64,000 nucleotides of DNA. Source: Candidatus Kaiserbacteria bacterium. GTDB taxonomy: Bacteria > Patescibacteriota > Minisyncoccia > Phycocordibacterales > UBA918. The notes under the pieces are model-generated. The model was not told the DNA's origin, did no database searches, and saw only the letters and a list, made by a program, of their open reading frames with translations. The stretch is taken from the NCBI GenBank assembly GCA_031430855.1, contig JANPCG010000004.1, positions 10,845-74,844 of the forward strand, given 5' to 3'. Positions 7,601 through 54,018 of this stretch are shown here, one piece after another. The position numbers were made by a program, and so were the translations under genes. Position 1 is the stretch's first letter, and each line of letters starts with the position of its first letter.

Positions 7601-8288
7601 TGATATTCGAACCGAAGGTCGTGAAAAAATCATTGTGGTTTCTCCAGACATGAATGCTAAAGGTGCACCAAAGAAGAAGGATAATATTGAATACCCAGTC
7701 CATTACCGCCGCATGGTAACGGTAAACAAAGGTGAGACAGTAATTTCGGGTCAAATGCTTACAGACGGCTCAGCCTTGCTTCCTGAACTCTTCAAGTTTG
7801 GTGGACAGGAAGTAGCTCAGGAATATATTATTTCTGAAGTAAACAAGATTTACGAGCTCCAAGGTGTGACGATTTCACGAAAGCACATTGAACTCATTGT
7901 GAAGCAGATGATGTCTCGCGTGAAAGTAAATAGTACAGGCGATAGTCACTTTACTAATGGTGACGTGGTTGAAGAGTGGATTTTTATTGAAGCAAATAAC
8001 AAGCTCAAGGCTGAAGGCAAGGAAGTTGCCAAGGCTGATCGTTTGATTTTGGGAATTACCGAAACGTCACTCTCACGAAAGAGTTTCCTCTCAGCCGCTT
8101 CTTTCCAGAACACAACACGTGTACTCATTAACGCTGCGGTGAAGGGAAGTGAAGACAACCTCGCTGGTCTCATGGAAAACGTGATTATTGGAAAATTAAT
8201 TCCAGCCGGATCAGGATTCAAGGGGAGTAAGAAGTATCAGATGATGCAGGAGCTTCAAGGAGGCGCCACTAGAATTGATAGAGACTAA
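4605..8288 (+). CDS. rpoC: DNA-directed RNA polymerase subunit beta'
   Basis: 1227 aa. It has the zinc-binding CxxC…CxxC N-terminus ([23 protein letters not shown]), the [12 protein letters not shown] catalytic motif, and trigger-loop/bridge-helix regions. It follows rpoB after a 15-nt gap. Confidence 0.97.
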
Positions 8289-8294
8289 CGGCCT

Positions 8295-8406
8295 CCAAAA
8301 CGCACGCATCTACGTTGTTGCACTGCGGCAGTGGACGCTCACCGTACATCAGGTACGGCTCGTGCCCACTACCTGGCGCGCCTAGTAGCTGCATACGTTT
8401 TGAAAC
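8295..8406 (+). repeat. Intergenic repeat element copy A (CCGTAC-hairpin family), directly 3' of rpoC
   Basis: ccaaaacgcacgcatctacgttgttgc…caccgtacatcaggtacggctc…ctggcgcgcctagtagctgcatacgttttgaaac. It aligns end to end with the copy after rpoD and shares its core with the other copies. Confidence 0.8.
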
Positions 8407-8440
8407 CCTCTGAAGTTAGAACGTTAGAGTAAAATCTAAA

Positions 8441-8490
8441 ACAACAAACCGCTGACACCTTTAGGTGTCAGCGGTTTGTTGTGTATTTGA
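8441..8490. terminator. Strong bidirectional intrinsic terminator
   Basis: aacaacaaaccgctgacacc-ttta-ggtgtcagcggtttgttgtg perfect long hairpin, followed by tattt. Confidence 0.7.
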
Positions 8491-8509
8491 GAAAAGAGTG
8501 AGAATTTCG

Positions 8510-8529
8510 CACTATCATATATGATAGTG
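8510..8529. promoter_or_regulatory. Perfect 20-bp palindrome CACTATCATATATGATAGTG, a putative operator or protein-binding site (copy 1 of 2)
   Basis: Self-complementary 20-mer lying between two terminators. A 26-nt stretch (gcactatcatatatgatagtgRaatt) is identical to 52447..52472, upstream of atpD. Confidence 0.5.
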
Positions 8530-8555
8530 GAAATTTAAATAGTAAAAACGAAAAA

Positions 8556-8598
8556 CCGCCGATAGACTGGCGGATTTCCAGTTATCGGCGGCACACTG
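8556..8598 (-). terminator. Intrinsic terminator of the small minus-strand gene
   Basis: ccgccgata…ttatcggcgg inverted repeat immediately 3' of the minus-strand stop at 8602. Confidence 0.5.
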
Positions 8599-8601
8599 CC
8601 C

Positions 8602-8799
8602 TCATTGAGTTTTCAGATAGATCTCCAGGGCGAACATGATGTTGTCTTGAATCGTCTGGGTTATGGCCAAAAGCGCCAATACGACACCAACTGTTGCAGC
8701 AAGAAAGCGAACCCATGGAGCTTCGTTCTTGATCAATCCGCTTGCAAACATGCCAGCACAGGCTCCACTCATCCAAACGTAAATAAAAACGTACTCCAT
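8602..8799 (-). CDS. small hydrophobic (membrane) protein, 65 aa
   Basis: A GGAGGGA ribosome-binding site lies 7 nt upstream of the ATG. The product (MEYVFIYVWMSGACAGMFASGLIK…VVLALLAITQ) contains two predicted TM helices. The ORF is bounded by terminators. Confidence 0.4.
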   Translation of the reverse strand: MEYVFIYVWMSGACAGMFASGLIKNEAPWVRFLAATVGVVLALLAITQTIQDNIMFALEIYLKTQ

Positions 8800-8892
8800 T
8801 TAGGACTCCCTCCATAGCTTTCAAAATAGTATCACATATATTGTAATAAGTCAATGGTGTGTAAGCGGTGATAAAATTTTTGCGGTATACTA

Positions 8893-10659: not shown

Positions 10660-10694
10660 TTTCTGCTGAATAAGTAGTATGAGCTTGGTAAAAA

Positions 10695-10765
10695 TCATTT
10701 TAGGCAACGAACACAAGGAAATGACAGTGAGGCGTACTTATTGTACGTTGAACCTGGCATTTTTG
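10695..10765 (-). repeat. Partial copy (M) of the CCGTAC-hairpin repeat, reverse orientation, between dnaG and rpoD
   Basis: The reverse complement reads …caacgtacaataagtacgcctcactg…ttccttg. Its loop cgtacaataagtacg is identical to the loop of the copy at 19600-19715. Confidence 0.45.
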
Positions 10766-10843
10766 AAGTGTGAGGCAGCATAAAGTTATTTTTAACGAGT
10801 TCACTGGACATTTTGGCGATTTTCTGTATAGTAGTCGATACGT

Positions 10844-12244
10844 ATGGCACAAGCCCGCAAAGTAGTCAAAAAAAGCAGTAAAAAAGCGGCCAAAACCGTT
10901 ACCAAAGTCACTAAAAAAAAGGTAGCCACAAAGACCAAAAATAAGGTCGCGGCTACAACCAAGAAGGCAAAAACAGTTGTAAAGAAACCCGTTGCTAAAA
11001 AGCCTGTACAAAAAACAACGGCCAAGAAATCCGTGGTTAAAAAGGTGTCTACTAAAATGCCGGTCGCAAAAAAAACAGCTAAACCTGTCACAAAAAAAGC
11101 AGAGACAAAGCCTGTGGCGCCAAAGAAAATTATGCCTGTTAAAGCTGCCCCTCCAGTGAAGCTCACCCGTGGCGAAAAACTCCTCGAACTTAAGGCGGCC
11201 GAACTCATGATCCTTGGACGGACTCGTGGGTACGTTACCTATGATGAACTCTTGCGTTCATTTCCTGAAATTGAAAAAGACGTGATGTTCCTCGATGACC
11301 TTTACGAACGATTTAACGTTGCAGGAATCGATGTGCTTAAATCAGGAGGAATGCTTGGTGATGATCCGGCGGAAGAACTGCTTGCTCAGAAAAATGCCTT
11401 TAAGCGTAACGACAGTAGTTATGACTCGATTCAAATGTACCTTCGTGAAATTGGACAGTACCCATTGTTAAACGCTCATGAAGAACGAGTGTTGGCGAAA
11501 CGTATTGTTGATGGTGACGACGAAGCGCGAAACTTGCTCGCTCGAGCAAACCTTCGCTTGGTGGTTTCGATTGCAAAAAAATACGTTGGTCGGTCACCGG
11601 ACTTAACTCTCCTTGATCTTATTCAGGAAGGAAACCTCGGACTCTTTAAGGCGGTTGATAAATTCGACTTCACGAAAGGCTTTAAATTCTCAACTTATGC
11701 GACGTGGTGGATTAGACAGGCCATTACGCGAGCTCTGGCTGACCAGTCTCGTACCATCCGAATTCCGGTTCACATGGTTGAAACGATGGCAAAATATAAG
11801 CAGGTATCACGTCGTCTCTCGCAAGATTTGGGTCGTGATCCAATGCCTGAGGAGATTGCCACTGAAATGGGAGTCGAAGTAGAAAAAATCTATCAGATTG
11901 AAAAAATCAGTCAGGACACCATTTCGCTCGAGCTTCCGATTGGTGACGAGGATGATAATTCACGACTCTCGGACTTTATTGCTGATGATAAAATTACTTC
12001 ACCTGACCAAGAAGTGTCACATAGTATTTTGACTGATCAAATCACCGAAATTCTCGACACCCTCTCAGAAAAAGAACGAAAGATTCTCGAGATGCGGCAT
12101 GGACTATTGGATGGTACGTATCATACACTTGAAGAAGTAGGAAAGGAGTTTGGGGTAACGCGTGAACGGATTCGTCAGATTGAAGCCAAAGCTCTTGAGA
12201 AAATCCGTCAACACGATAAAGCGCGAAGATTGAAAAGTTATTAG
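10844..12244 (+). CDS. rpoD: RNA polymerase sigma factor RpoD (sigma-70) with a roughly 90-aa lysine/alanine-rich N-terminal extension
   Basis: Region 2 ([40 protein letters not shown]), region 3 and region 4 ([23 protein letters not shown]). The N-terminus is [24 protein letters not shown]… (histone H1-like). A TATAGT -10 box lies 11 nt upstream. Confidence 0.93.
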
Positions 12245-12252
12245 CGAAGCTT

Positions 12253-12365
12253 CCAAAACGCACGCATCTACGTTGTTGCCATTCGCACTCGGACATTCAA
12301 TGTACTATCCAGTACACCTCATGTCCTCATACTCTGGCGCCTAGTAGCTACGTACGTTTTGAAAC
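12253..12365 (+). repeat. Intergenic repeat element copy B, directly 3' of rpoD
   Basis: The ends are near-identical to copy A (ccaaaacgcacgcatctacgttgttgc … ctggcgcctagtagctacgtacgttttgaaac). The core is the variant hairpin tgtac-tatcca-gtaca. Confidence 0.75.
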
Positions 12366-12376
12366 CTCATCGGACG

Positions 12377-12439: not shown

Positions 12440-12660
12440 GTGCTAAATAAACGTACAAAACGTATGCAGGGGCTGGTGAGAAAGCGTGGGACGCTTTCGC
12501 AAGACCTTGCCTGCCATCTTTGGAGCGAGAGCGGAAAAGTAGCGACAAGGTGTACAGCTTCCATAAGAAGTGCAAGGAAATTTTGATGAGCCGTATTTAA
12601 TATACGGTGAATTAAAATTTACGCAGCGTAACAAAGCACATGCGTGCGTTTAGGAAGTTT
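12440..12660 (-). repeat. Intergenic repeat element copy J (long variant), 3' of the antiporter gene in the gene's orientation
   Basis: The reverse complement reads cctaaacgcacgcatgtgctttgttacgctgcg…caccgtatattaaatacggctcatc…ccttgcac, then about 100 extra nt, then ctgcatacgttttgtacg, matching the 3' end of copy A. This looks like an insertion or extended variant. Confidence 0.55.
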
Positions 12661-14752
12661 AGATCCGGTCGTGGGCAATATCTTCCCGTAGTACAATCGA
12701 CAACTTCTGCGTAATGAGTTCACGTTCGCGGATTTCTTCAAGGACGGTTTCAGCAATTTTATGAACACTAAATTGTGCGAGACGTTCAGAGAGTACAAGT
12801 GCAATACCGGGATTATCGACAGCAATTACCTGCATTTTCTTTTCAGACTCGGTCCGGAACGTGGTATAGAGATCTGTGACGTGTGTCATTGCACTCGCCG
12901 TAAAAATACTTTCGGCTGAGTCGCTTTGGAGGTTCACGAGTTCTTTGAGCACTTTACGGGCAATAATCGTTTGGGCTCGATAGTACATATAATTATGATC
13001 AATCCGGTCAGTAGCGGTATCTTCAACAAATAGTTTACGTAACACCGTAGCCATTCTTTCGAAGACATCTTTGTTGTCGGTATGGAGCGACATGTCAGGC
13101 TCAAGAACACCATTTTCAATAGATTCAAGCTGGAGTTGGAGTTTGCCAGAGAGTCGGCGGAAGACAGATTCGGTAACTTCGTTGTGGTGGTAGAGGTCCT
13201 TGAGGTGACGTTTTTCAATTCCAATGGCGTACATACGGAGTACGCGAAGCGCTAAGTTATTCCGGGCTTCGCTCGAGAGGTTGCTTACCGCCTTGCAGGC
13301 CTCATTATATGCTTGTACGTGCTTCTCGCGAATCCGTGAGGCTACATTTGTAGCAATGTATCCACGTTCACGATACTTATCGAGCCGTTCTGTGATTTCG
13401 TGATGGATGAGGGCTTGAGCTTCTTGATATTCAATTTTTTCTACTTCAGTTAATTGATCAAGCTTAAGCTTGCGCATTACCCACTGCATAGTTGGTGCTT
13501 TAATAAAGAGGGTAGCTGAAATACAGCCAATCGTGAGAGAGAGCAAGAAATCACGCACACTGATATCGAGGCTCCAGCCCGGAACGCTAAAGGTTTCGGG
13601 AATCAGGAGTACCATAGTTACTGCCAAGGCGCCCCGGAGTGAACCCCAAGACAATAGGTGTTGCCAAGACATGGGCAATCGTCGGTCTGGTGTTGTGGTT
13701 TGATTGTAGGCGACGACGACGGGGTAGATTGAAACAGCCCGGGCAATGGCGACCACAAAGATAGTAATAATAACTACCTGAAGCATGTCACGGTTTAACA
13801 CTGGTGCATCCATAAACAAGAGTCCAATGAGAAGGAAGATCAAAGAGTTTGCAAAGAATGCCAGCTGGCCCCAGAGCTTTTCTACGAATTCTTCCGCGCG
13901 CGGATGGATTTTCGGTCGACCATAGTTACCCATTAAGAGTGCGGCGACTGTGGTAGCGATAATTGGAGAGAGAGGAAGTTCAAAGCCACCGATACTCAAG
14001 TAGTGAGAAATAATTTCTGCTAAAATAAACGTAACGTGGGCCAGTACAATGGTGAGGGTGATACTAGCAGTTTCGTTTTCACGGGTGAGACCGACTAATT
14101 TTGCAAACAAACCTCCCATAATAATACCGAAGAGGACCCCTCCTACCATCATTGAGGTAAAGCTAATAGTTCCGGCGAGAATGGTATCAAAACCATGATA
14201 GCCAAAGGTGGCTACTTCAAGGAGAACCAAGAAAAGAGCTACTGCAGTGGCGTCATTAAAGAGACTTTCACCTTCAAAGATGAGAGAGAGTCGTGGTGGT
14301 GCGCCGAATTCTTTGAAGAGCGCAAGTACGGCCACCGGGTCAGTGGCAGAAATAAGAGCTCCAAATATGAGGGTAATCATAAATGGAACGCCAAGTCCAA
14401 TAAACTCAAGGATGTAAAAGAGCGGAATCGCAATGGCAAGCGTTGAGATTAGTAGACCAACAATCGAAAGAATGAGTACAATTGGCGTGTCTTCCACTAA
14501 TCGCCTAACGTTGATATTGTAGGCTGATTCAAAAATCAGGGTTGGCAACAAAAGGTAAAAAAGTAACTCGGGGGTAAGGTGAAATTCACCAAAAAAATGA
14601 AACGCGGGGACGTTAGCGAGGAGTCCCAAAATCATACCGATAAGTACTAAAAAGACGGTATGGGGGAGACGGAAACGTTTGGCCCAAAAGATAGCCAGAC
14701 TAGAGATTCCTAACATTGCAAAGATGGCAAGGGTGGCGTTAGCAGTGAGCAT
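12659..14752 (-). CDS. CPA1-family Na+/H+ (cation/proton) antiporter with a large C-terminal cytoplasmic domain
   Basis: 697 aa with multiple TM helices. It has the Na_H_Exchanger signature …ISATDPVAVLALFKEFGAPPRLSLIFEGESLFNDATAVALF…. Confidence 0.85.
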   Translation of the reverse strand: MLTANATLAIFAMLGISSLAIFWAKRFRLPHTVFLVLIGMILGLLANVPAFHFFGEFHLTPELLFYLLLPTLIFESAYNINVRRLVEDTPIVLILSIVGLLISTLAIAIPLFYILEFIGLGVPFMITLIFGALISATDPVAVLALFKEFGAPPRLSLIFEGESLFNDATAVALFLVLLEVATFGYHGFDTILAGTISFTSMMVGGVLFGIIMGGLFAKLVGLTRENETASITLTIVLAHVTFILAEIISHYLSIGGFELPLSPIIATTVAALLMGNYGRPKIHPRAEEFVEKLWGQLAFFANSLIFLLIGLLFMDAPVLNRDMLQVVIITIFVVAIARAVSIYPVVVAYNQTTTPDRRLPMSWQHLLSWGSLRGALAVTMVLLIPETFSVPGWSLDISVRDFLLSLTIGCISATLFIKAPTMQWVMRKLKLDQLTEVEKIEYQEAQALIHHEITERLDKYRERGYIATNVASRIREKHVQAYNEACKAVSNLSSEARNNLALRVLRMYAIGIEKRHLKDLYHHNEVTESVFRRLSGKLQLQLESIENGVLEPDMSLHTDNKDVFERMATVLRKLFVEDTATDRIDHNYMYYRAQTIIARKVLKELVNLQSDSAESIFTASAMTHVTDLYTTFRTESEKKMQVIAVDNPGIALVLSERLAQFSVHKIAETVLEEIRERELITQKLSIVLREDIAHDRI

Positions 14753-18783: not shown

Positions 18784-19596
18784 ATGGGATTTTTTGACGC
18801 TATTTTACTGGGGTTAATTCAAGGAATAACTGAGTTTTTGCCGATTTCTTCAACGGGGCACTTAATTTTAATGCGTGAGCTTCTTGGTCTCCAGTCTGCT
18901 GGTGGTGAATTGGCGTTTGATGCCGTTCTTCATTTGGCGACGGCACTCGCTGTCATTATTTATTTCTCCAAAGATATTTGGAGCATTGCGCAGACTGCGC
19001 TGCGAAAGTTGGGACGGTTGCCCGTAAATCAGAAAGAACTGACGCTCTTCTATGCCCTTGCTATTGGAACTATTCCAGCCGTGGTGGTGGGAGTGTTGCT
19101 TGAGTCTACTATGGAAACAGCGTTCCGGTCACCCCTGTTGGTGGCAGGGGTTCTTGTTGCTGGTTCTCTCCTGTTCATTTATGCTGAATGGTTTATTTAT
19201 AATTCAGTGCCGAACAATACTGTTACGGTTAAAAAAGGAATCCAGATTGGTCTATTTCAGTGTCTTGCGTTAGTTCCCGGGATGTCTCGGTCGGGAGCCA
19301 CTATTGCAGGTGGTATGTTGTTAGGATTGTCACGAGTCGAAGCGGCACGATTTGCGTTTCTTTTGGCTGTACCGATTATGCTAGGTGCAGGAGGTAAAAA
19401 ACTCATTGAGTTAATTTCTTCACCAGCAACCGTGTCCTGGTTTCCGATACTGATTGGGGCGGTAGTGGCGTTTATTGTCGGATTATTGGCAATTCATTTT
19501 ATGCTAACGTTTGTGAGGCGACATACGTTGTGGCCGTTTATTTGGTATCGGTTACTTCTCGCGGCCTTCGTAGCTTACGTCTACCTCGTCGCGTAA
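18784..19596 (+). CDS. uppP: undecaprenyl-diphosphate phosphatase (BacA/UppP)
   Basis: MGFFDAILLGLIQGITEFLPISSTGHLIL…MSRSGATI…, the classic UppP motifs. The preferred start is 18784, because the track start at 18760 lies inside the TGATATACT -10 element at 18761-18769. Confidence 0.9.
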   Translation: MGFFDAILLGLIQGITEFLPISSTGHLILMRELLGLQSAGGELAFDAVLHLATALAVIIYFSKDIWSIAQTALRKLGRLPVNQKELTLFYALAIGTIPAVVVGVLLESTMETAFRSPLLVAGVLVAGSLLFIYAEWFIYNSVPNNTVTVKKGIQIGLFQCLALVPGMSRSGATIAGGMLLGLSRVEAARFAFLLAVPIMLGAGGKKLIELISSPATVSWFPILIGAVVAFIVGLLAIHFMLTFVRRHTLWPFIWYRLLLAAFVAYVYLVA

Positions 19597-19599
19597 ATC

Positions 19600-19715
19600 T
19601 TTTAAAATCACTTCATCTGCGTTGTTGCGCTGCGGTAAGTTGCGTCTCACCGTACAATAAGTACGACTCAAAGCAACTTCCTTGCGCGCCTAGCAGCTAA
19701 AGTAATTTAAAAAAG
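19600..19715 (+). repeat. Intergenic repeat element copy C, directly 3' of uppP
   Basis: cttcatctgcgttgttgcgctgcgg…ctcaccgtacaataagtacgactc…ccttgcgcgcctagcagctaaag. Confidence 0.8.
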
Positions 19716-19794
19716 ATTTGGATGCTTATTTAAATAAAAAATTAAGGATATTAAAAGTAATAAAAAAGGAAATGACGCAGGTAGGGGACCCGCG

Positions 19795-20706: not shown

Positions 20707-20870
20707 AGTAGGAATGAAAGGTAAGAGGTCAATTATATCATGAGTGCTCAAGATTGCCTGAGATGCGAGGCAGGTGGTGAAAAATATTGTGAGGTGTGCT
20801 ACTTGCACATTGAACAAAATTTTTTGCTACCTAACAAAGCTGATCAGGTGATATTGAGTACTTTTGAAGC

Positions 20871-23036: not shown

Positions 23037-23904
23037 CGTATTGGTCAGGGTGGGTAACTATGGCAAACCCTTTTTGCTGGGCCATTTCAGTAAGTGCGTT
23101 TACTTGCGCCGGTTCGTGTTCGATCCAGAGTTGTCCGTCGGGGTTTAGATGGGCTGGCGCAACTTCAATAATTTGCTTTATAATTTCCATTCCCTCGCTC
23201 CCTCCAAATAATGCCAGATGAGGCTCGTTCTCTATGACACTCGCTTCAACTGTGTATGCGGCTGCGTCTATATATGGTGGGTTAGTCAGTATGTAGTCAA
23301 ACCCGCGGTTTTGTTTGTGAATTTCTTTGTTGTGGGTCCCGATTTTTTCATCACCATATTCATCATATTGCTCTTTCAAAAATTCTCCCACGCCGCGAAC
23401 TTCACCCGCCACACTCGCGGCTACATCTTTTTGCAGTGCAGAAAACAAATCACTTTCTATAATTTCGGTGATAGAATCACCAAGTAAATTTATCTTGATA
23501 TTTTTTGTTATGGTTGAGAGGTGAGTCGGATCAATTTCGGCAAAGGTAACGTGTGCATTAGAGACCGCTTTTGCGACCGCAACTCCAATTGCGCCACTGC
23601 CAGCACAGAGGTCGAGAATTTTTAAGGAGGAGGCAAGACCTCCTTCGGTATTTTGTTCGAGGTCTCGCCTCGTACTTTGCGCTTGGATTGTAGTGATGGC
23701 TTGCTCGACCCAGTACTCAGTTTCGGGGCGGGGAATGAGGGGATGGGAGTCGAGATAAATGGTGCAGTTCAAGAAAGGTACTTGTCCGATGAGGTACGCT
23801 AAAGGTGTTCCATCTCGTAACTGTTCACAGTCAGCGTAAAAAGCTTCGGTTTCTACGCCGCCGTATTTTTCTTTGAGGAGCCACGCTGATTCTTGATTTT
23901 TCAT
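22999..23904 (-). CDS. prmC: release factor glutamine N5-methyltransferase PrmC (HemK)
   Basis: LAYLIGQVPFLNCTIYLDSHPLIPRPETE, SAM motif ILDLCAGSGAIGVA, catalytic NPPY (ILTNPPYI). The preferred start is 23904 (MKNQESAWLL…); the track's 24072 start adds 56 non-conserved residues. Confidence 0.85.
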   Translation of the reverse strand: MKNQESAWLLKEKYGGVETEAFYADCEQLRDGTPLAYLIGQVPFLNCTIYLDSHPLIPRPETEYWVEQAITTIQAQSTRRDLEQNTEGGLASSLKILDLCAGSGAIGVAVAKAVSNAHVTFAEIDPTHLSTITKNIKINLLGDSITEIIESDLFSALQKDVAASVAGEVRGVGEFLKEQYDEYGDEKIGTHNKEIHKQNRGFDYILTNPPYIDAAAYTVEASVIENEPHLALFGGSEGMEIIKQIIEVAPAHLNPDGQLWIEHEPAQVNALTEMAQQKGFAIVTHPDQYGVPRFSILSVAQ

Positions 23905-25294: not shown

Positions 25295-26062
25295 ATGACA
25301 ATTAATTGGATAGGGTTATACACGATGTTGAGGCGTGAAGTGAAAAGGACACTCCGTGTTTCAGTGCAGACATTGGCGGCGCCAGTGATTTCAGCAGCTT
25401 TATATATTTTTATTTTTGGTACCGTGATTGGTTCAAAAATCGATAATTTTGCGGGCGTTCCGTACATCTCGTTTGTGTTTCCTGGGGTACTCATGTTGTC
25501 AATAATTAACGCTTCGTTTTCGAGTGCTTCCTCGGCACTATTTTTTATGAAGTTTACGCGTGGTATTGAAGAGATTTTAATCACACCTTTCTCGTACATT
25601 GAAATGTTATTGGGTTTTGTCGGTAGTGCGGTCGCCAGGGCAATGATTGTGGCGTTTCTGATTCTGATTGTGGGAATGCTGTTTGGGGCGGTAACACTGA
25701 CTAATCCATTGATGTTTATATTTTATGTGGCTGCTATTTCAGCTATCTTTGCGATGTTAGGAATTATTGTGGCGCTGTGGGCTGAAGGGTTCGAACAATT
25801 GCAGATGCTTAATACGTTTGTGATTACGCCACTCACATACCTGGGTGGAATCTTCTATTCAATTACTATGTTGCCGCCACTGGCTGCACAGATTACTATT
25901 CTCAACCCCTTCTTTTATTTTGCGGATGGTATTCGCGGCGCGATGATTGGCTACCACGAAGCGAATCAGATTATTGGGCTAATAGTAGTGATAGGATTGG
26001 TGGTGTTTCTTGGGATTCTCGTCACTCAGCTTTTCAAGCGTGGTTGGAAAATCCGAAGTTAA
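25295..26062 (+). CDS. ABC-2 type transporter permease
   Basis: Six TM segments. It is coupled to the upstream ATPase (the stop at 25293 is followed by the ATG at 25295). Confidence 0.75.
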   Translation: MTINWIGLYTMLRREVKRTLRVSVQTLAAPVISAALYIFIFGTVIGSKIDNFAGVPYISFVFPGVLMLSIINASFSSASSALFFMKFTRGIEEILITPFSYIEMLLGFVGSAVARAMIVAFLILIVGMLFGAVTLTNPLMFIFYVAAISAIFAMLGIIVALWAEGFEQLQMLNTFVITPLTYLGGIFYSITMLPPLAAQITILNPFFYFADGIRGAMIGYHEANQIIGLIVVIGLVVFLGILVTQLFKRGWKIRS

Positions 26063-26079
26063 CAATAATAATAACCCAC

Positions 26080-26165
26080 CTACTGCGTTGCGCTTCGGCA
26101 AAATAATTTTCAACGTATCAAAAGTACGTCTCAAATAATTTTCCTCGCGCGCCTTGTATCTGGGT
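26080..26165 (+). repeat. Intergenic repeat element copy G, directly 3' of the ABC permease gene
   Basis: ctgcgttgcgcttcggcaaaataattttcaacgtatcaaaagtacgtctcaaataattttcctcgcgcgccttg. It aligns base by base with the copy at 32968. Confidence 0.7.
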
Positions 26166-26255
26166 CATTCTTCCCGTTAACTAAAATAATCACAAAAATT
26201 AATTGTAGTAGCGAACAAATCTCCACAGATAGATACGTATAAAGAGACAAATTGA

Positions 26256-32958: not shown

Positions 32959-32967
32959 AGAGGTATT

Positions 32968-33078
32968 CCAAAAATACTTCATCTGCGTTGTTGGTCTTCA
33001 AAAAATTATATTCACCGTACATTCGTACGGCTCACACAATTTTTCTTGCCCGCCTAGCAGCTAAAGCATTTTTGAAAC
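32968..33078 (+). repeat. Intergenic repeat element copy D, directly 3' of the GH15 gene
   Basis: ccaaaaatacttcatctgcgttgttg…caaaaaattatattcaccgtacattcgtacggctcacacaatttttcttgcccgcctagcagctaaagcatttttgaaac. Confidence 0.8.
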
Positions 33079-33217
33079 ACCTATTCAGACTGAAATTATT
33101 TTTCGATACAAATCTTTTTTAAACTCTAGCCGTTGACGCTTTTATATTTACAAAATATACATCTCCCTATACTGTAGTCGACAGGCTCTTGATTGGAGGA
33201 TGAAGGTGGGAGGCGTT

Positions 33218-35876: not shown

Positions 35877-36002
35877 GGTAGGGAATTAGAGTGGCGAACC
35901 ACCGAGAAAAGCATTTACAATCAAGAGGAGAATAAATCCGCCGATTACAAGAAGTAAGAATTGCATAGTTTTATGAGAATACCACATTTCACCACATTTT
36001 TA

Positions 36003-36040
36003 AACAACATCTGCCCCGGCGTAGCCGGGGCAGATGTTGT
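36003..36040. terminator. Bidirectional intrinsic terminator
   Basis: atctgccccggc-gta-gccggggcagat flanked by aaacaac and gttgtttagtttttt. Confidence 0.65.
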
Positions 36041-36074
36041 TTAGTTTTTTAACTTACACCGAATCTGAAAAGGA

Positions 36075-36195
36075 TTTTCAAAAATTGATGCAGCGCTAGG
36101 CGTGGAAGAAAAATTTGATGAGCCGTACTTTTCGTACGGTAAGTCTAATTTTTTGCACCACAACAACGCGGTGCGCAGTTTTTTGGAATTCCTCC
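36075..36195 (-). repeat. Intergenic repeat element copy H (reverse orientation), 3' of the DEAD-box helicase gene; includes an 80-nt segment identical to copy I
   Basis: 36091..36170 equals 37627..37706, 80/80 identical. The reverse complement shows the family consensus …cgcgttgttgtggtgcaaaaaattagacttaccgtacgaaaagtacggctcatcaaatttttcttccacgcctagcgctg…. Confidence 0.85.
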
Positions 36196-37590
36196 CTATT
36201 TTGTGACGAAAGTGAGAGCCTGCCCTCGTTTATCAGCCCGTCCCGTTCGGCCAATTCGGTGAACATAATCTTCATACGCATTTGGAAGGTCGTAGTTAAT
36301 GACGTGTGAGACATCATCAACGTGGATACCACGAGCAGCGACGTCAGTTGCAACGAGTACCTGAACCCGGCCCAATTTAAAGTTCTGGAGGGCGCGCTGT
36401 CTCTGTGGGTGACTCTTGTTACCGTGAATGGCATCGGACTTGATACCAGCGCGAGTGAGTTCTTGAGAAAGTTTCTCCACGCTATGCTTCATTGCGCCAA
36501 AGATGATGACGCGAGTAAAGTCCGCCTTCTTTAAGAGTGCAACGAGCGTATCAAACTTGGTGTGCGGTTCGTAATACACTACGTCTTGCGTGATACTGCC
36601 GGTAATATCTTTCTTACGAACGGAAATCGTAATTGGATCATTCATGAATTCATGAATCATTCCTTTTACACTGTCAGACATAGTTGCAGAGAAGAAGAGG
36701 GTTTCGTGTGGATCAGGGACGTCTTTCAAAATCTTTCGCATATCATGGATGAATCCCATATCGAGCATACGGTCAGCTTCATCAAGTACGATGGTTGAAA
36801 ATCCGCCCGGTTTGATGTGTCCACGGTCAATGAGGTCTTGAACGCGTCCTGGAGTACCAATAATAAAATGATTCTGGCGACGGAGGCCCTGAATCTGTGG
36901 GCGAATATTCATTCCACCAACACAAACAGTTGAGAAGATTTTCATTTTCTCAGTCAGTCGCTTGAGTTCCTGTTCTACTTGAATTGCGAGTTCGCGGGTA
37001 GGTGCGAGAATAAGTGTTTGACGACTATATTGCTTGAGTGTCTTGTTAATGAGTGGTACCAAGAACGCTGCCGTTTTACCGGTCCCCGTTTGGGCTAATC
37101 CAACCACATCACGACCATCAAGGATGTGAGGAATAATTTGATCTTGAATTGGTGAGGGAATAGTTAGTCCCATGTTGGTAATCGTAGTTACGAGAGGCTG
37201 TTCAAGGCCAAAGGTTTTGAAAGTATGCTTCGCTTCATAGACTTCTTCTGGTGTCGTATCGGCCGGGTTAAGGTTGATGTAGCGAGACACGTCAAAGGTT
37301 TGCATTTTGCGTCCCCCTCGACTCCCTCCACCGCTGCGACTGCCGCCACGACTCCCTCCACCTCGACTACTGCTACCTCCAAAAGAGGGTCGACTTGATG
37401 ACGGGCGATTAGAACTACTACTAAAACTGCGACGTGGTCCGTGACTAGCGCTACTTGGAGCAATTTGACGTGAGCCACTGCGGTCGCTAAAGCGGCGGGC
37501 TGCGCCATTTCCAGAACCACTATCACTCGTTGAGCGGGGGCGACTAGAAAAGCTAGGTTTCCGACTAGGTCGGCTTGTTGATGAATCCAT
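36196..37590 (-). CDS. DEAD-box ATP-dependent RNA helicase with a C-terminal Arg/Gly/Ser-rich tail
   Basis: Q-motif, Walker A AQTGTGKT, DEAD (VLDEADRM), SAT, HRIGRTGR. The C-terminal roughly 90 aa are GGSRGG/RSFSS repeats. Confidence 0.9.
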   Translation of the reverse strand: MDSSTSRPSRKPSFSSRPRSTSDSGSGNGAARRFSDRSGSRQIAPSSASHGPRRSFSSSSNRPSSSRPSFGGSSSRGGGSRGGSRSGGGSRGGRKMQTFDVSRYINLNPADTTPEEVYEAKHTFKTFGLEQPLVTTITNMGLTIPSPIQDQIIPHILDGRDVVGLAQTGTGKTAAFLVPLINKTLKQYSRQTLILAPTRELAIQVEQELKRLTEKMKIFSTVCVGGMNIRPQIQGLRRQNHFIIGTPGRVQDLIDRGHIKPGGFSTIVLDEADRMLDMGFIHDMRKILKDVPDPHETLFFSATMSDSVKGMIHEFMNDPITISVRKKDITGSITQDVVYYEPHTKFDTLVALLKKADFTRVIIFGAMKHSVEKLSQELTRAGIKSDAIHGNKSHPQRQRALQNFKLGRVQVLVATDVAARGIHVDDVSHVINYDLPNAYEDYVHRIGRTGRADKRGQALTFVTK

Positions 37591-37604
37591 ATTAAATTAA
37601 TGAG

Positions 37605-37740
37605 AATGAAACTTTCGTAAATGAGTACAGCGCTAGGCGTGGAAGAAAAATTTGATGAGCCGTACTTTTCGTACGGTAAGTCTAATTTTTTGCACCACAA
37701 CAACGCGATGTGCCATTTAGGTAAGTTTTTGTGCAGGTTG
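37605..37740 (-). repeat. Intergenic repeat element copy I (reverse orientation), 5' of the DEAD-box helicase gene; direct repeat of copy H
   Basis: The 80-nt stretch 37627..37706 is identical to 36091..36170. Flanks diverge on both sides. Confidence 0.85.
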
Positions 37741-37904
37741 TAAAACCAATCGAAGGGGTAGGGTGGCAGAGATAGCCACAAAATTCTTCTACTGCCACAA
37801 AAGACGCCCTACACGAGAATCTTAAGGTAGTAAGAGAATAACATTAAAATCATAAAGAGTCAATTTTATGAGTGATGATATACTGGATAAAAATGTAATG
37901 CAGT

Positions 37905-47902: not shown

Positions 47903-48001
47903 GAAAGTTAGTAAATAATCACGAGTTCCATGGATTCATGTATCTCGTACTTGTTTGGTAACAGTAAATTAATAATTGTAGGACTTACAGAAACGAGTGC
48001 A

Positions 48002-48086
48002 ATTCGAGGCGTCCAAGTAAAATATTACGAGACGTACATTAGTACGGTGAGAAATATTTTACGCCGGACAACAAAGAAGTGCTCCG
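48002..48086 (-). repeat. Intergenic repeat element copy L (reverse orientation) between atpB and atpE
   Basis: The reverse complement reads cggagcacttctttgttgtccggcgtaaaatatttctcaccgtactaatgtacgtctcgtaatattttacttggacgcctcgaat, showing the family core and flanks. Confidence 0.6.
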
Positions 48087-48110
48087 TTTATGTAAGTGCT
48101 GCCTAAGTAA

Positions 48111-48380
<270 letters not shown>

Positions 48381-48490
48381 TTTCCGCGAAATTGGCGAAC
48401 TGCTGCGCTGCGGTAAAATTTTTACTCACCGTGTAAAAATACGGCTCGCAAAATTTTCCTTGCACGCCTTGCATTTCATCCAATTCAGCG
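48381..48490 (+). repeat. Intergenic repeat element copy E, directly 3' of atpE
   Basis: …ctgctgcgctgcggtaaaatttttactcaccgtgtaaaaatacggctcgcaaaattttccttgcacgccttgcatttcatcc. Confidence 0.7.
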
Positions 48491-48589
48491 AAAATTACTC
48501 CTGCTCTGAGCTTGTTTAAAAATAATTTAAACTTAGAGCTAAAGTTGGGAACACGCTCTCATTATTAGTTAAGCTCATTGCAAGATTGT

Positions 48590-48675
48590 CTGAGATTCGC
48601 GAAGTACAAAAGAAATAATTTGAGACGTACTTTTCGTACGACGAAAATAATTTCTTGCAGTACGACAAAGAAGAT
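48590..48675 (+). repeat. Intergenic repeat element copy K, 5' of atpF
   Basis: aataatttgagacgtacttttcgtacgacgaaaataatttcttgcag. It aligns with copy G (aataattttcaacgtatcaaaagtacgtctcaaataattttcctcgc). Confidence 0.55.
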
Positions 48676-48709
48676 TAGATGATATTGCAATGAGCGCTCT
48701 CTCACTGCT

Positions 48710-52383: not shown

Positions 52384-53868
<1,485 letters not shown>

Positions 53869-53874
53869 CAATAG

Positions 53875-53980
53875 TGGGCAATCTGCCTTGTTGTACTTCG
53901 CGAAATAACTTTCATCGTATAAAAATACGCCTCAAATGATTTCACTCGCACGCCTCGCATCTCACCCACTCTAGCTCCAC
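53875..53980 (+). repeat. Intergenic repeat element copy F, directly 3' of atpD
   Basis: …ctgccttgttgtacttcgcgaaataactttcatcgtataaaaatacgcctcaaatgatttcactcgcacgcctcgcatc… (CGTAT/ATACG variant of the core hairpin). Confidence 0.65.
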
Positions 53981-54018
53981 CTGATTTCTTGGCAACTAAA
54001 AATAATGTTAAAAATATT

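Follow-up and report, generated by a model that had tools for sequence, protein, structure and literature searches.

Probable gene conversion between two hairpin elements flanking a DEAD-box RNA helicase gene, and probable deletion of that gene, in an uncultured Kaiserbacteria bacterium

A 64-kb stretch of DNA from Candidatus Kaiserbacteria bacterium (contig JANPCG010000004.1, positions 10,845 to 74,844 of the forward strand), referred to here as the window, contains a gene for an RhlE-like DEAD-box RNA helicase that is bracketed by two identical 80-nt direct repeats. It is probable that the repeats are the centres of two old members of a dispersed family of ~125-nt hairpin elements at conserved positions in the untranslated regions (UTRs) of the helicase mRNA (the 5'UTR member follows a conserved promoter and leader and precedes the ATG, and the 3'UTR member follows the stop codon and precedes a canonical terminator), that the centre of one of them was recently replaced by gene conversion, and that an allele lacking the helicase gene is apparently present in the same strain. 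The phenomenon is ordinary in kind, and the pair exposes an abundant hairpin family that is placed with great regularity at stop and start codons and whose fold is conserved on the unexpected strand, an asymmetry that is its one unexplained property.

The two tracts, 36091-36170 and 37628-37707, match at all 80 of 80 positions with an offset of 1537 nt, and the number of matches of that length expected in shuffled sequence is 0. They lie 25 nt downstream and 37 nt upstream of the helicase coding sequence, respectively, within a wider region of similarity that is 91% identical over 106 nt (36076-36181 against 37613-37718). A previous examination of the window, hereafter the sequence-only reading, had described perfect direct repeats around the helicase gene belonging to one element family and sharing one orientation, and apart from a shift of 1 nt in the second interval (given as 37627-37706) that description holds. 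A covariance model of the family (R1, built from 12 copies) finds both tracts, each inside a full element and both elements in the same orientation; the identity of 60-75% reported for other copies likewise stands for the window. The 80-nt identity ends within the element, not at the element boundaries.

Comparison of orthologous loci (designated here by L numbers), which the sequence-only reading had suggested as a check, finds orthologues of both copies in five relatives (L003, L004, L005, L007 and L093) and one copy or none in others. The downstream copy of L005 (10002-10200) has a stop-proximal arm disrupted by ~90 nt of extra sequence. L002, L008, L010 and L051 carry the downstream copy alone; the upstream copy is absent from L002, L006, L008 and L009, and the downstream copy from L006 and L009. 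Within the genomes of relatives the upstream and downstream copies are 57-65% identical or, in L093, have no word longer than 9 nt in common. Because dissimilar copies occupy both positions in five other genomes, the arrangement of the pair is old. Upstream copies resemble one another across genomes, with outer arms GTAAAYGAGTACAG ... TGTGYCRTTTA, as do downstream copies, with TTTCARAAA..GATGCAG ... TGCGC..TTTTTGGAA. In the window the outer arms of both copies keep these position-specific signatures, each still pairing, and exact identity between the two is confined to the central 80 nt. In the downstream copy of the window this centre is of the upstream type (GGCGTGGAAG ... GCACCACAACAACG, as in the upstream copies of L003 and L007). 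Strain L085, whose helicase DNA is 96% identical to that of the window, has a downstream copy with alleles of its own, GAAAAAG, CTCACC and GCGATA, and at these positions the downstream copy of the window has the upstream alleles.

The simplest reading of these allele patterns is that the 80-nt identity arose by a recent, non-reciprocal gene conversion from the upstream to the downstream copy after the split from L085, in which the 3'UTR copy would have received a central tract of at most 80 nt from its 5'UTR counterpart, with the outer arms of both unchanged. The sequence-only reading had offered recent duplication and gene conversion as alternatives, and it is conversion that accounts for outer arms that match their own orthologues in other species around a centre that carries upstream-type alleles. 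A recent segmental duplication, or a new insertion, that made one of the copies would explain identity of 80/80 where other copies reach 60-75%, but with dissimilar copies at both orthologous positions in five other genomes, outer arms that differ by position while each still pairs, and identity that stops inside the element, this origin is very improbable. Two copies might also be kept identical by selection, were the helicase mRNA to require one precise sequence at each end, such as a helicase-binding site; the upstream copy is conserved in six lineages, and those of L003 (9857-9980) and L007 (9856-9982) are 91% identical where the helicase coding sequences are 74.6% identical. Yet the two copies differ strongly, variable stems included, in every other genome that has both, and for independent substitutions to reach 80/80 is implausible, so that selection in place of conversion deserves even less credence than duplication. 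The pair would thus be a case of gene conversion between dispersed repeats with its direction resolved and its timing approximate.

The sequence-only reading had cautioned that the identity might be an assembly artefact. Four independent assemblies reproduce both 80-mers exactly, together with the four wild-type junctions: a 234-kb contig of a metagenome-assembled genome (GCA_043735715.1), two k141 contigs (ERZ27315211 and ERZ27315213) and a scaffold (ERZ28573518), each of which spans both copies. Short-k contigs do break at the repeat, those of SRR20217180 and SRR23617143 in the k=31 Logan collection ending exactly 30 nt into it, and the L085 contig begins inside the upstream copy; breaks at k-1 = 30 nt are, however, as expected of a true two-copy repeat. 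A collapsed or wrongly duplicated repeat is therefore a negligible prospect, and the artefact can be taken as excluded.

An 80-nt direct identity of this kind would provide a substrate for homologous recombination, and the suggestion of the sequence-only reading that the helicase cassette could be excised in this way is supported by one dataset. A 5585-nt Logan contig of SRR20217179 (L091) runs from the helicase leader through the upstream flank, one 80-nt core, the downstream flank and the terminator to the CNNM gene and onward, without the helicase; over 5257 nt it matches the window at 100% identity, and it overlaps by 30 nt a second contig of the same run that carries a divergent 373-aa gene. 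L091 is the sole fetched sequence with the deletion junction. Following the neighbouring 373-aa protein brought no further deletion alleles (L093 and L094 carry the helicase, and L095 and L096 break before the repeat), and the circular junction or segment duplication that had also been envisaged finds no counterpart, in that the fetched sequences contain neither a circle nor a tandem-duplication junction.

Whether L091 reflects the genome or the assembly graph turns on how its path was formed. Logan contigs are non-branching paths of the k=31 graph after simplification (PMC12424806), and because L091 is a joined path, links from the core to the helicase must have been absent from the SRR20217179 graph or removed from it. 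Removal would make L091 an artefact of graph simplification in a sample that does contain the helicase; k=31 cannot resolve an 80-nt repeat, and the joined path appears in one run only, with coverage not given. Against this stand the non-branching definition itself and the contig breaks that the same repeat does cause in two other runs. In addition, the exact helicase protein is on record for SRR20217180 only and both flanking genes are on record for SRR20217179, in an index that is incomplete. The tips and bulges that assemblers trim are usually short, and the helicase loop, at 1.46 kb, is long by comparison. An artefact is on this evidence unlikely, if far from negligible, and deletion of the 1537-nt helicase segment in the same strain, in SRR20217179, is probable. 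It would mark what is probably a repeat-mediated loss of this gene in a single natural population of an uncultured member of the Candidate Phyla Radiation (CPR). Deletion and conversion between dispersed short repeats occur in bacteria generally, and the 80-nt direct repeat around a 1.5-kb segment, the single-copy junction and a tract bounded inside the repeats all conform to them; the mechanism is an ordinary one, here in an uncultured CPR bacterium.

The nearest relatives of the helicase are encoded by Candidatus Kaiserbacteria and other Paceibacteria (Patescibacteria/CPR), some of them named RhlE, and those in Joint Genome Institute (JGI) sources have protein identities of at most 81%. Imperfect tandem repeats of 9-30 nt at the N-terminus (37313-37387) encode a low-complexity tail rich in serine, arginine and glycine. 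A strong promoter, TTGAC-17-TGnTAT..T, is common to all related helicase loci. It is followed by a leader of ~100 nt, composed of ACCTTAAGATTCTCGTGTAGGGC, a variable hairpin and CCTGCACA (also written CTTAAGATTCTCGTGTAGGGC ... CCTGCACAGCCC), after which come a small hairpin and the ATG. Of 78 related Paceibacteria loci, 34 have the leader motif ahead of the helicase, and the closing helix of the leader, GUGUAGG/CCUGCAC, is invariant across loci save for one covarying pair. The leader has no match in Rfam, and the promoter and leader together are a candidate for a new cis-regulatory leader.

The leader motif stands 112-137 nt from the ATG in L002, L006, L008 and L010, which lack the upstream element, and 167 nt in L009, as against 233-243 nt in genomes that have it, and because of this difference the upstream copy is taken to be an insertion of ~125 nt in an older 5'UTR. 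At the site of the upstream copy, genomes without the element have a small hairpin. Past the gene, L002, L003, L004, L007 and L008 share the order stop codon, element, and canonical GC-rich hairpin with U-tract; in genomes without the downstream element the terminator directly follows the helicase stop. In the window the corresponding hairpin (36001-36043) has on the helicase strand only a weak U run. Because the promoter and leader lie upstream and a separate terminator downstream, both copies are predicted to be part of the helicase mRNA. The proposal of the sequence-only reading that the upstream copy acts as a structured 5'UTR is thereby upheld in part: the copy does lie within the 5'UTR, downstream of the conserved promoter at 37863-37835, but the widely conserved leader is a different ~100-nt sequence farther upstream, and the mRNA bears the weaker-folding strand of the element.

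The family from which the pair is drawn occurs in Kaiserbacteria and other Paceibacteria. R1 finds 14 full copies in the 64-kb window, all intergenic (~1 copy per 4.6 kb, seven per strand and 0.2-15 kb apart), and a further 36 copies in related loci. Each element folds into a single long hairpin. Its stems vary in sequence and covary; an internal loop, in which CUAGGCG faces CAACAACG, is conserved, as is an apical module, GAG-CCGUAC-loop-GUACGG-UGA, with a nearly invariant G.U pair. Across the 39 modelled pairs of 48 distinct copies, 93% of cells are standard pairs and 36 pairs change on both sides; none of 500 shuffles reaches the observed values, and slid controls come nowhere near them. A weak partial R1 match (29 bits) at 23317-23405, inside a methyltransferase open reading frame (ORF), is probably a chance match or a decayed fragment.

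The family has no match in Rfam 15 at gathering score, and permissive thresholds give chance-level matches only, ribozymes, riboswitches, thermometers and the leaders of cold-shock or DEAD-box genes included. A hammerhead-like reading of UGAUGAG...GAA was rejected, the conserved part being GAG...UGA only, as was a K-turn, there being no 3-nt bulge and the neighbouring positions pairing and covarying. The literature on repeats, miniature inverted-repeat transposable elements (MITEs) or palindromes of Parcubacteria, Patescibacteria or Kaiserbacteria yielded no description of these elements, and a preprint on non-coding elements found with genome language models does not mention these taxa; as far as could be checked, the family is undescribed. 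No tRNA or tmRNA was found in the window.

Placement of the copies is equally regular. For 28 of 46 copies, one fixed end of the element falls within -5 to +6 nt of a stop codon whose gene is on the opposite strand. In the window, ten of the 14 copies adjoin stop codons (rpoC, rpoD, Na/H exchanger, bacA, hisS, ABC-2 permease, GH15, helicase, atpE and atpD), and three in the opposite orientation precede the starts of rpoD, atpE and atpF by 40, 16 and 14 nt. The upstream helicase copy is the sole window copy that has the stop-codon orientation and yet is located before a start codon (15 nt). Two other genes, rpoD and atpE, are also bracketed by two copies (at 10678-12371 and 47978-48498, elements included), but these are inverted, so that the helicase pair is the only direct one. 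A and T runs flank the element hairpin on both strands, the adjoining stem is rich in AU and GU pairs, and a terminator scan flagged no element. A role as a mark for the end of a transcription unit was considered and rejected, given copies in the helicase 5'UTR and within the atp and dnaG-rpoD operons and a separate terminator past the 3'UTR copies. The features are collected in the table that follows, in which S denotes the strongly folding strand of the element, complementary to the adjacent gene.

Table. Features of the helicase locus and full copies of the hairpin family in the window (positions of the 64-kb window; R1, score with the covariance model)
Feature	Position	Strand	Evidence and remarks
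RhlE-like DEAD-box RNA helicase, coding sequence, 464 aa	36196..37590	-	Pfam DEAD 3e-46, Helicase_C 9e-32
Helicase promoter, TTGACT-17-TATTCT with TG extension	37835..37863	-	TTGAC...TGTTAT..T conserved in orthologous loci
Conserved helicase 5' leader, ACCTTAAGATTCTCGTGTAGGGC ... CCTGCACA	37731..37828	-	Alignment and fold; closing long-range helix GUGUAGG/CCUGCAC
Upstream (5'UTR) family copy, full element	37606..37730	+	R1 100.7 bits; 15 nt ahead of helicase ATG
Exact 80-nt core, upstream copy	37628..37707		Putative conversion donor; GGCGTGGAAG...GCACCACAACAACG also in upstream copies of L003 and L007
Downstream (3'UTR) family copy, full element	36069..36193	+ (strand S; helicase mRNA is the complement)	R1 115.8 bits; begins 2 nt past helicase stop
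Exact 80-nt core, downstream copy	36091..36170		Putative conversion recipient; upstream-type alleles where L085 has downstream-type
Perfect 20-bp GC-rich hairpin, A and T runs either side	36001..36043		Intrinsic terminator after 3'UTR element
Copy adjoining rpoC stop	8288..8412	-	R1 110.4 bits
Copy between dnaG and rpoD, 40 nt before rpoD ATG, S on mRNA strand	10678..10803	+	R1 74.7 bits
Copy adjoining rpoD stop	12246..12371	-	R1 104.1 bits
Copy adjoining Na/H exchanger stop	12536..12661	+	R1 81.9 bits
Copy adjoining bacA stop	19595..19720	-	R1 116.6 bits
Copy adjoining hisS stop	20739..20864	+	R1 107.7 bits
Copy adjoining ABC-2 permease stop	26058..26183	-	R1 104.2 bits
Copy adjoining GH15 stop	32961..33084	-	R1 117.2 bits
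Copy 16 nt before atpE ATG, S on mRNA strand	47978..48100	+	R1 88.1 bits
Copy at atpE stop	48379..48498	-	R1 75.2 bits
Copy 14 nt before atpF ATG, S on mRNA strand	48571..48695	+	R1 109.5 bits
Copy at atpD stop, between atpD and atpC	53861..53984	-	R1 107.9 bits

The strand S was assigned from the asymmetric conserved loops, and the comparison of minimum free energies between strands is independent of the model. As RNA, S gives the more stable fold in every one of the 48 copies, with means of -51.1 kcal/mol for S and -35.1 kcal/mol for the opposite strand, and the same is found with DNA parameters. The modelled pairs, in an alignment fitted to the S model, include 238 G.U on S and, as the equivalent of G.U on the opposite strand, 24 A.C cells. 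The folded consensus has -39.4 kcal/mol with 33 covarying pairs for S and -12.8 for the gene-sense strand, and the conserved tandem G.A and G.U module is found on S only. An orientation of S set by replication was rejected, since S lies on the plus strand in seven copies and on the minus strand in seven under a GC skew that is uniform across the window. Mutation bias behind the G.U excess was rejected by reasoning: the usual transcription-linked deamination, acting on the non-template strand, predicts an asymmetry opposite to that observed.

No conserved promoter motif lies within or upstream of S, nor is there a promoter next to the elements by the genome's own strong consensus; the one at 8854-8823 is that of a small convergent gene. 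RNA from the S strand is unlikely at the 3'UTR copy of the helicase, where S is immediately preceded by a strong terminator on the plus strand. Candidates for the origin of the asymmetry are an intermediate of propagation or conversion formed by the S strand, a role at the level of DNA, and S-sense donor copies that homogenise the others.

Three points weigh against the account in which old, positionally conserved UTR copies underwent conversion and now flank a segment that can be lost. The upstream and downstream copies of L085 already share stems, so that conversion probably took place more than once and can be timed only approximately. The deletion is read from one short-k contig of one run, without read counts, where a low-coverage branch may have been lost. 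And in most copies the conserved fold lies opposite to the mRNA strand, which is not what a simple model of mRNA hairpins predicts. With these points included, conversion between old UTR copies together with an apparent deletion allele is still judged the probable account.

As to function, the copies may, by their placement, be hairpins that are transcribed at the boundaries of cistrons and influence the stability or processing of the mRNA, much as has been proposed for ERIC and REP. This reading is drawn from their placement at -15/+2, the pairs of copies around atpE, rpoD and the helicase, the intra-operon copies and the separate terminators. DEAD-box helicases are enzymes of the type that unwinds hairpins of this sort, and the helicase encoded here may act on those of the family and so feed back on its own mRNA, which a conserved copy in its own 5'UTR, of unusual orientation and position, would allow. 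If the helicase does act on these hairpins, its own flanking copies would make a simple feedback loop.

The conversion at the helicase gene seems to be a fresh example of a common exchange of variants between sites and between lineages. At the GH15 stop (32961-33084 in the window), three different family variants occur among strains that include L083, L084 and L085 (14520-14690 in L083, 4600-4815 in L085). The flanks of the site are 99.5% identical in L083 and L084, and in L085 they are 97% identical on one side and 89% on the other, a drop across the element that marks a recombination breakpoint. The swapped tract ends at the stop codon and takes it in (TAG against TAA), and there are two more substitutions in the last 20 nt of GH15. 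The variant of L083 resembles the one at the same site in the distant L007. Likewise, the resemblance between the upstream helicase copies of L003 and L007, set beside the divergence of the gene they precede, implies either strong constraint or an exchange of elements between lineages.

Among known repeats, the ERIC/IRU elements of Enterobacteria and Yersinia (~127 bp) are similar in size (120-127 nt), in forming a single long imperfect hairpin, in being transcribed in intergenic regions and UTRs in either orientation to cistrons, and in having many diverged copies; in Yersinia, orientation-dependent effects of ERIC on mRNA stability are reported. No sequence relationship to ERIC is known, however, and the present elements belong to Patescibacteria, lie within a few nt of stops or ~15 nt before starts, and have a strong strand asymmetry of fold. 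The REP, BIME and REPIN families are also many-copy extragenic imperfect palindromes, mostly at the 3' ends of genes, with gene conversion, turnover of variants and possible rearrangements, but their unit is one of 20-40 nt with a GTAG/GTGG head, often in inverted doublets, whereas the element described here is one hairpin of ~125 nt with two conserved internal loops and lacks a conserved GTAG head. No RAYT (Y1 transposase) is found among the ORFs of the window or the gene calls of the loci. With MITEs such as Correia and RUP the family shares polymorphism for presence or absence between related genomes; groups of recent, nearly identical copies with an autonomous parent are not seen, the copies being 60-75% identical apart from the converted pair and no transposase having been found. 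In the helicase 5'UTR and 3'UTR, occupied and unoccupied orthologous sites have diverged too far for a clean insertion to be made out, and no target-site duplication is evident.

There is also a likeness to the attC sites of integrons (for example the 123-126-nt Vibrio cholerae repeats), and it invites a different explanation of the deletion, namely that the elements are structure-specific, single-strand recombination sites, the helicase an excisable cassette and its loss site-specific. In both cases sites of similar size, with conserved structure and variable sequence, directly follow an ORF in fixed orientation and fold on the strand complementary to it, and a site-gene-site arrangement can lose its gene; the ~125-nt imperfect palindromes, the 28 of 46 copies that adjoin stop codons, the swapping of variants at one site up to the stop codon and the single-copy product L091 all fit. 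The stem base, on the other hand, has none of the paired core sites RYYYAAC ... GTTRRRY: a GTTGTTG does occur in the internal loop facing CTAGGCG, at the end opposite R'. Nor was an R/L box consensus, an array or an integrase found, the copies lying on both strands among housekeeping genes, and domains of integrases, transposases or reverse transcriptases were not found in the window. A circular junction was likewise not seen, and 80 nt of identity suffices for RecA-type recombination, which leaves an attC-like site improbable. Somewhat less improbable, though still doubtful, is the broader proposal that the family, far from being a passive REP-like repeat, constitutes a new class of element at gene boundaries that acts as a single strand complementary to the mRNA, be it DNA of the template strand or antisense RNA. 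If it were true, that single strand might be a structure-specific site of recombination or mobility, the helicase would be a module resembling a cassette, as perhaps would rpoD and atpE, and the deletion of the helicase and the swapping of variants at GH15 would be its products.

Two smaller features of the window were seen in passing. The small gene convergent with rpoC is an unannotated 65-aa ORF of membrane type (8602..8799, minus strand, within 8432-8854), which has a strong promoter (8854-8823) and is followed by two successive terminator hairpins (~8545-8590 and 8432-8480), with the rpoC-end element lying between the two genes. A palindromic word, GCACTATCATATATGATAGTG, occurs in intergenic or gene-boundary positions at 8509-8544 and again at 52448-52483, and may be an operator or another small repeat.

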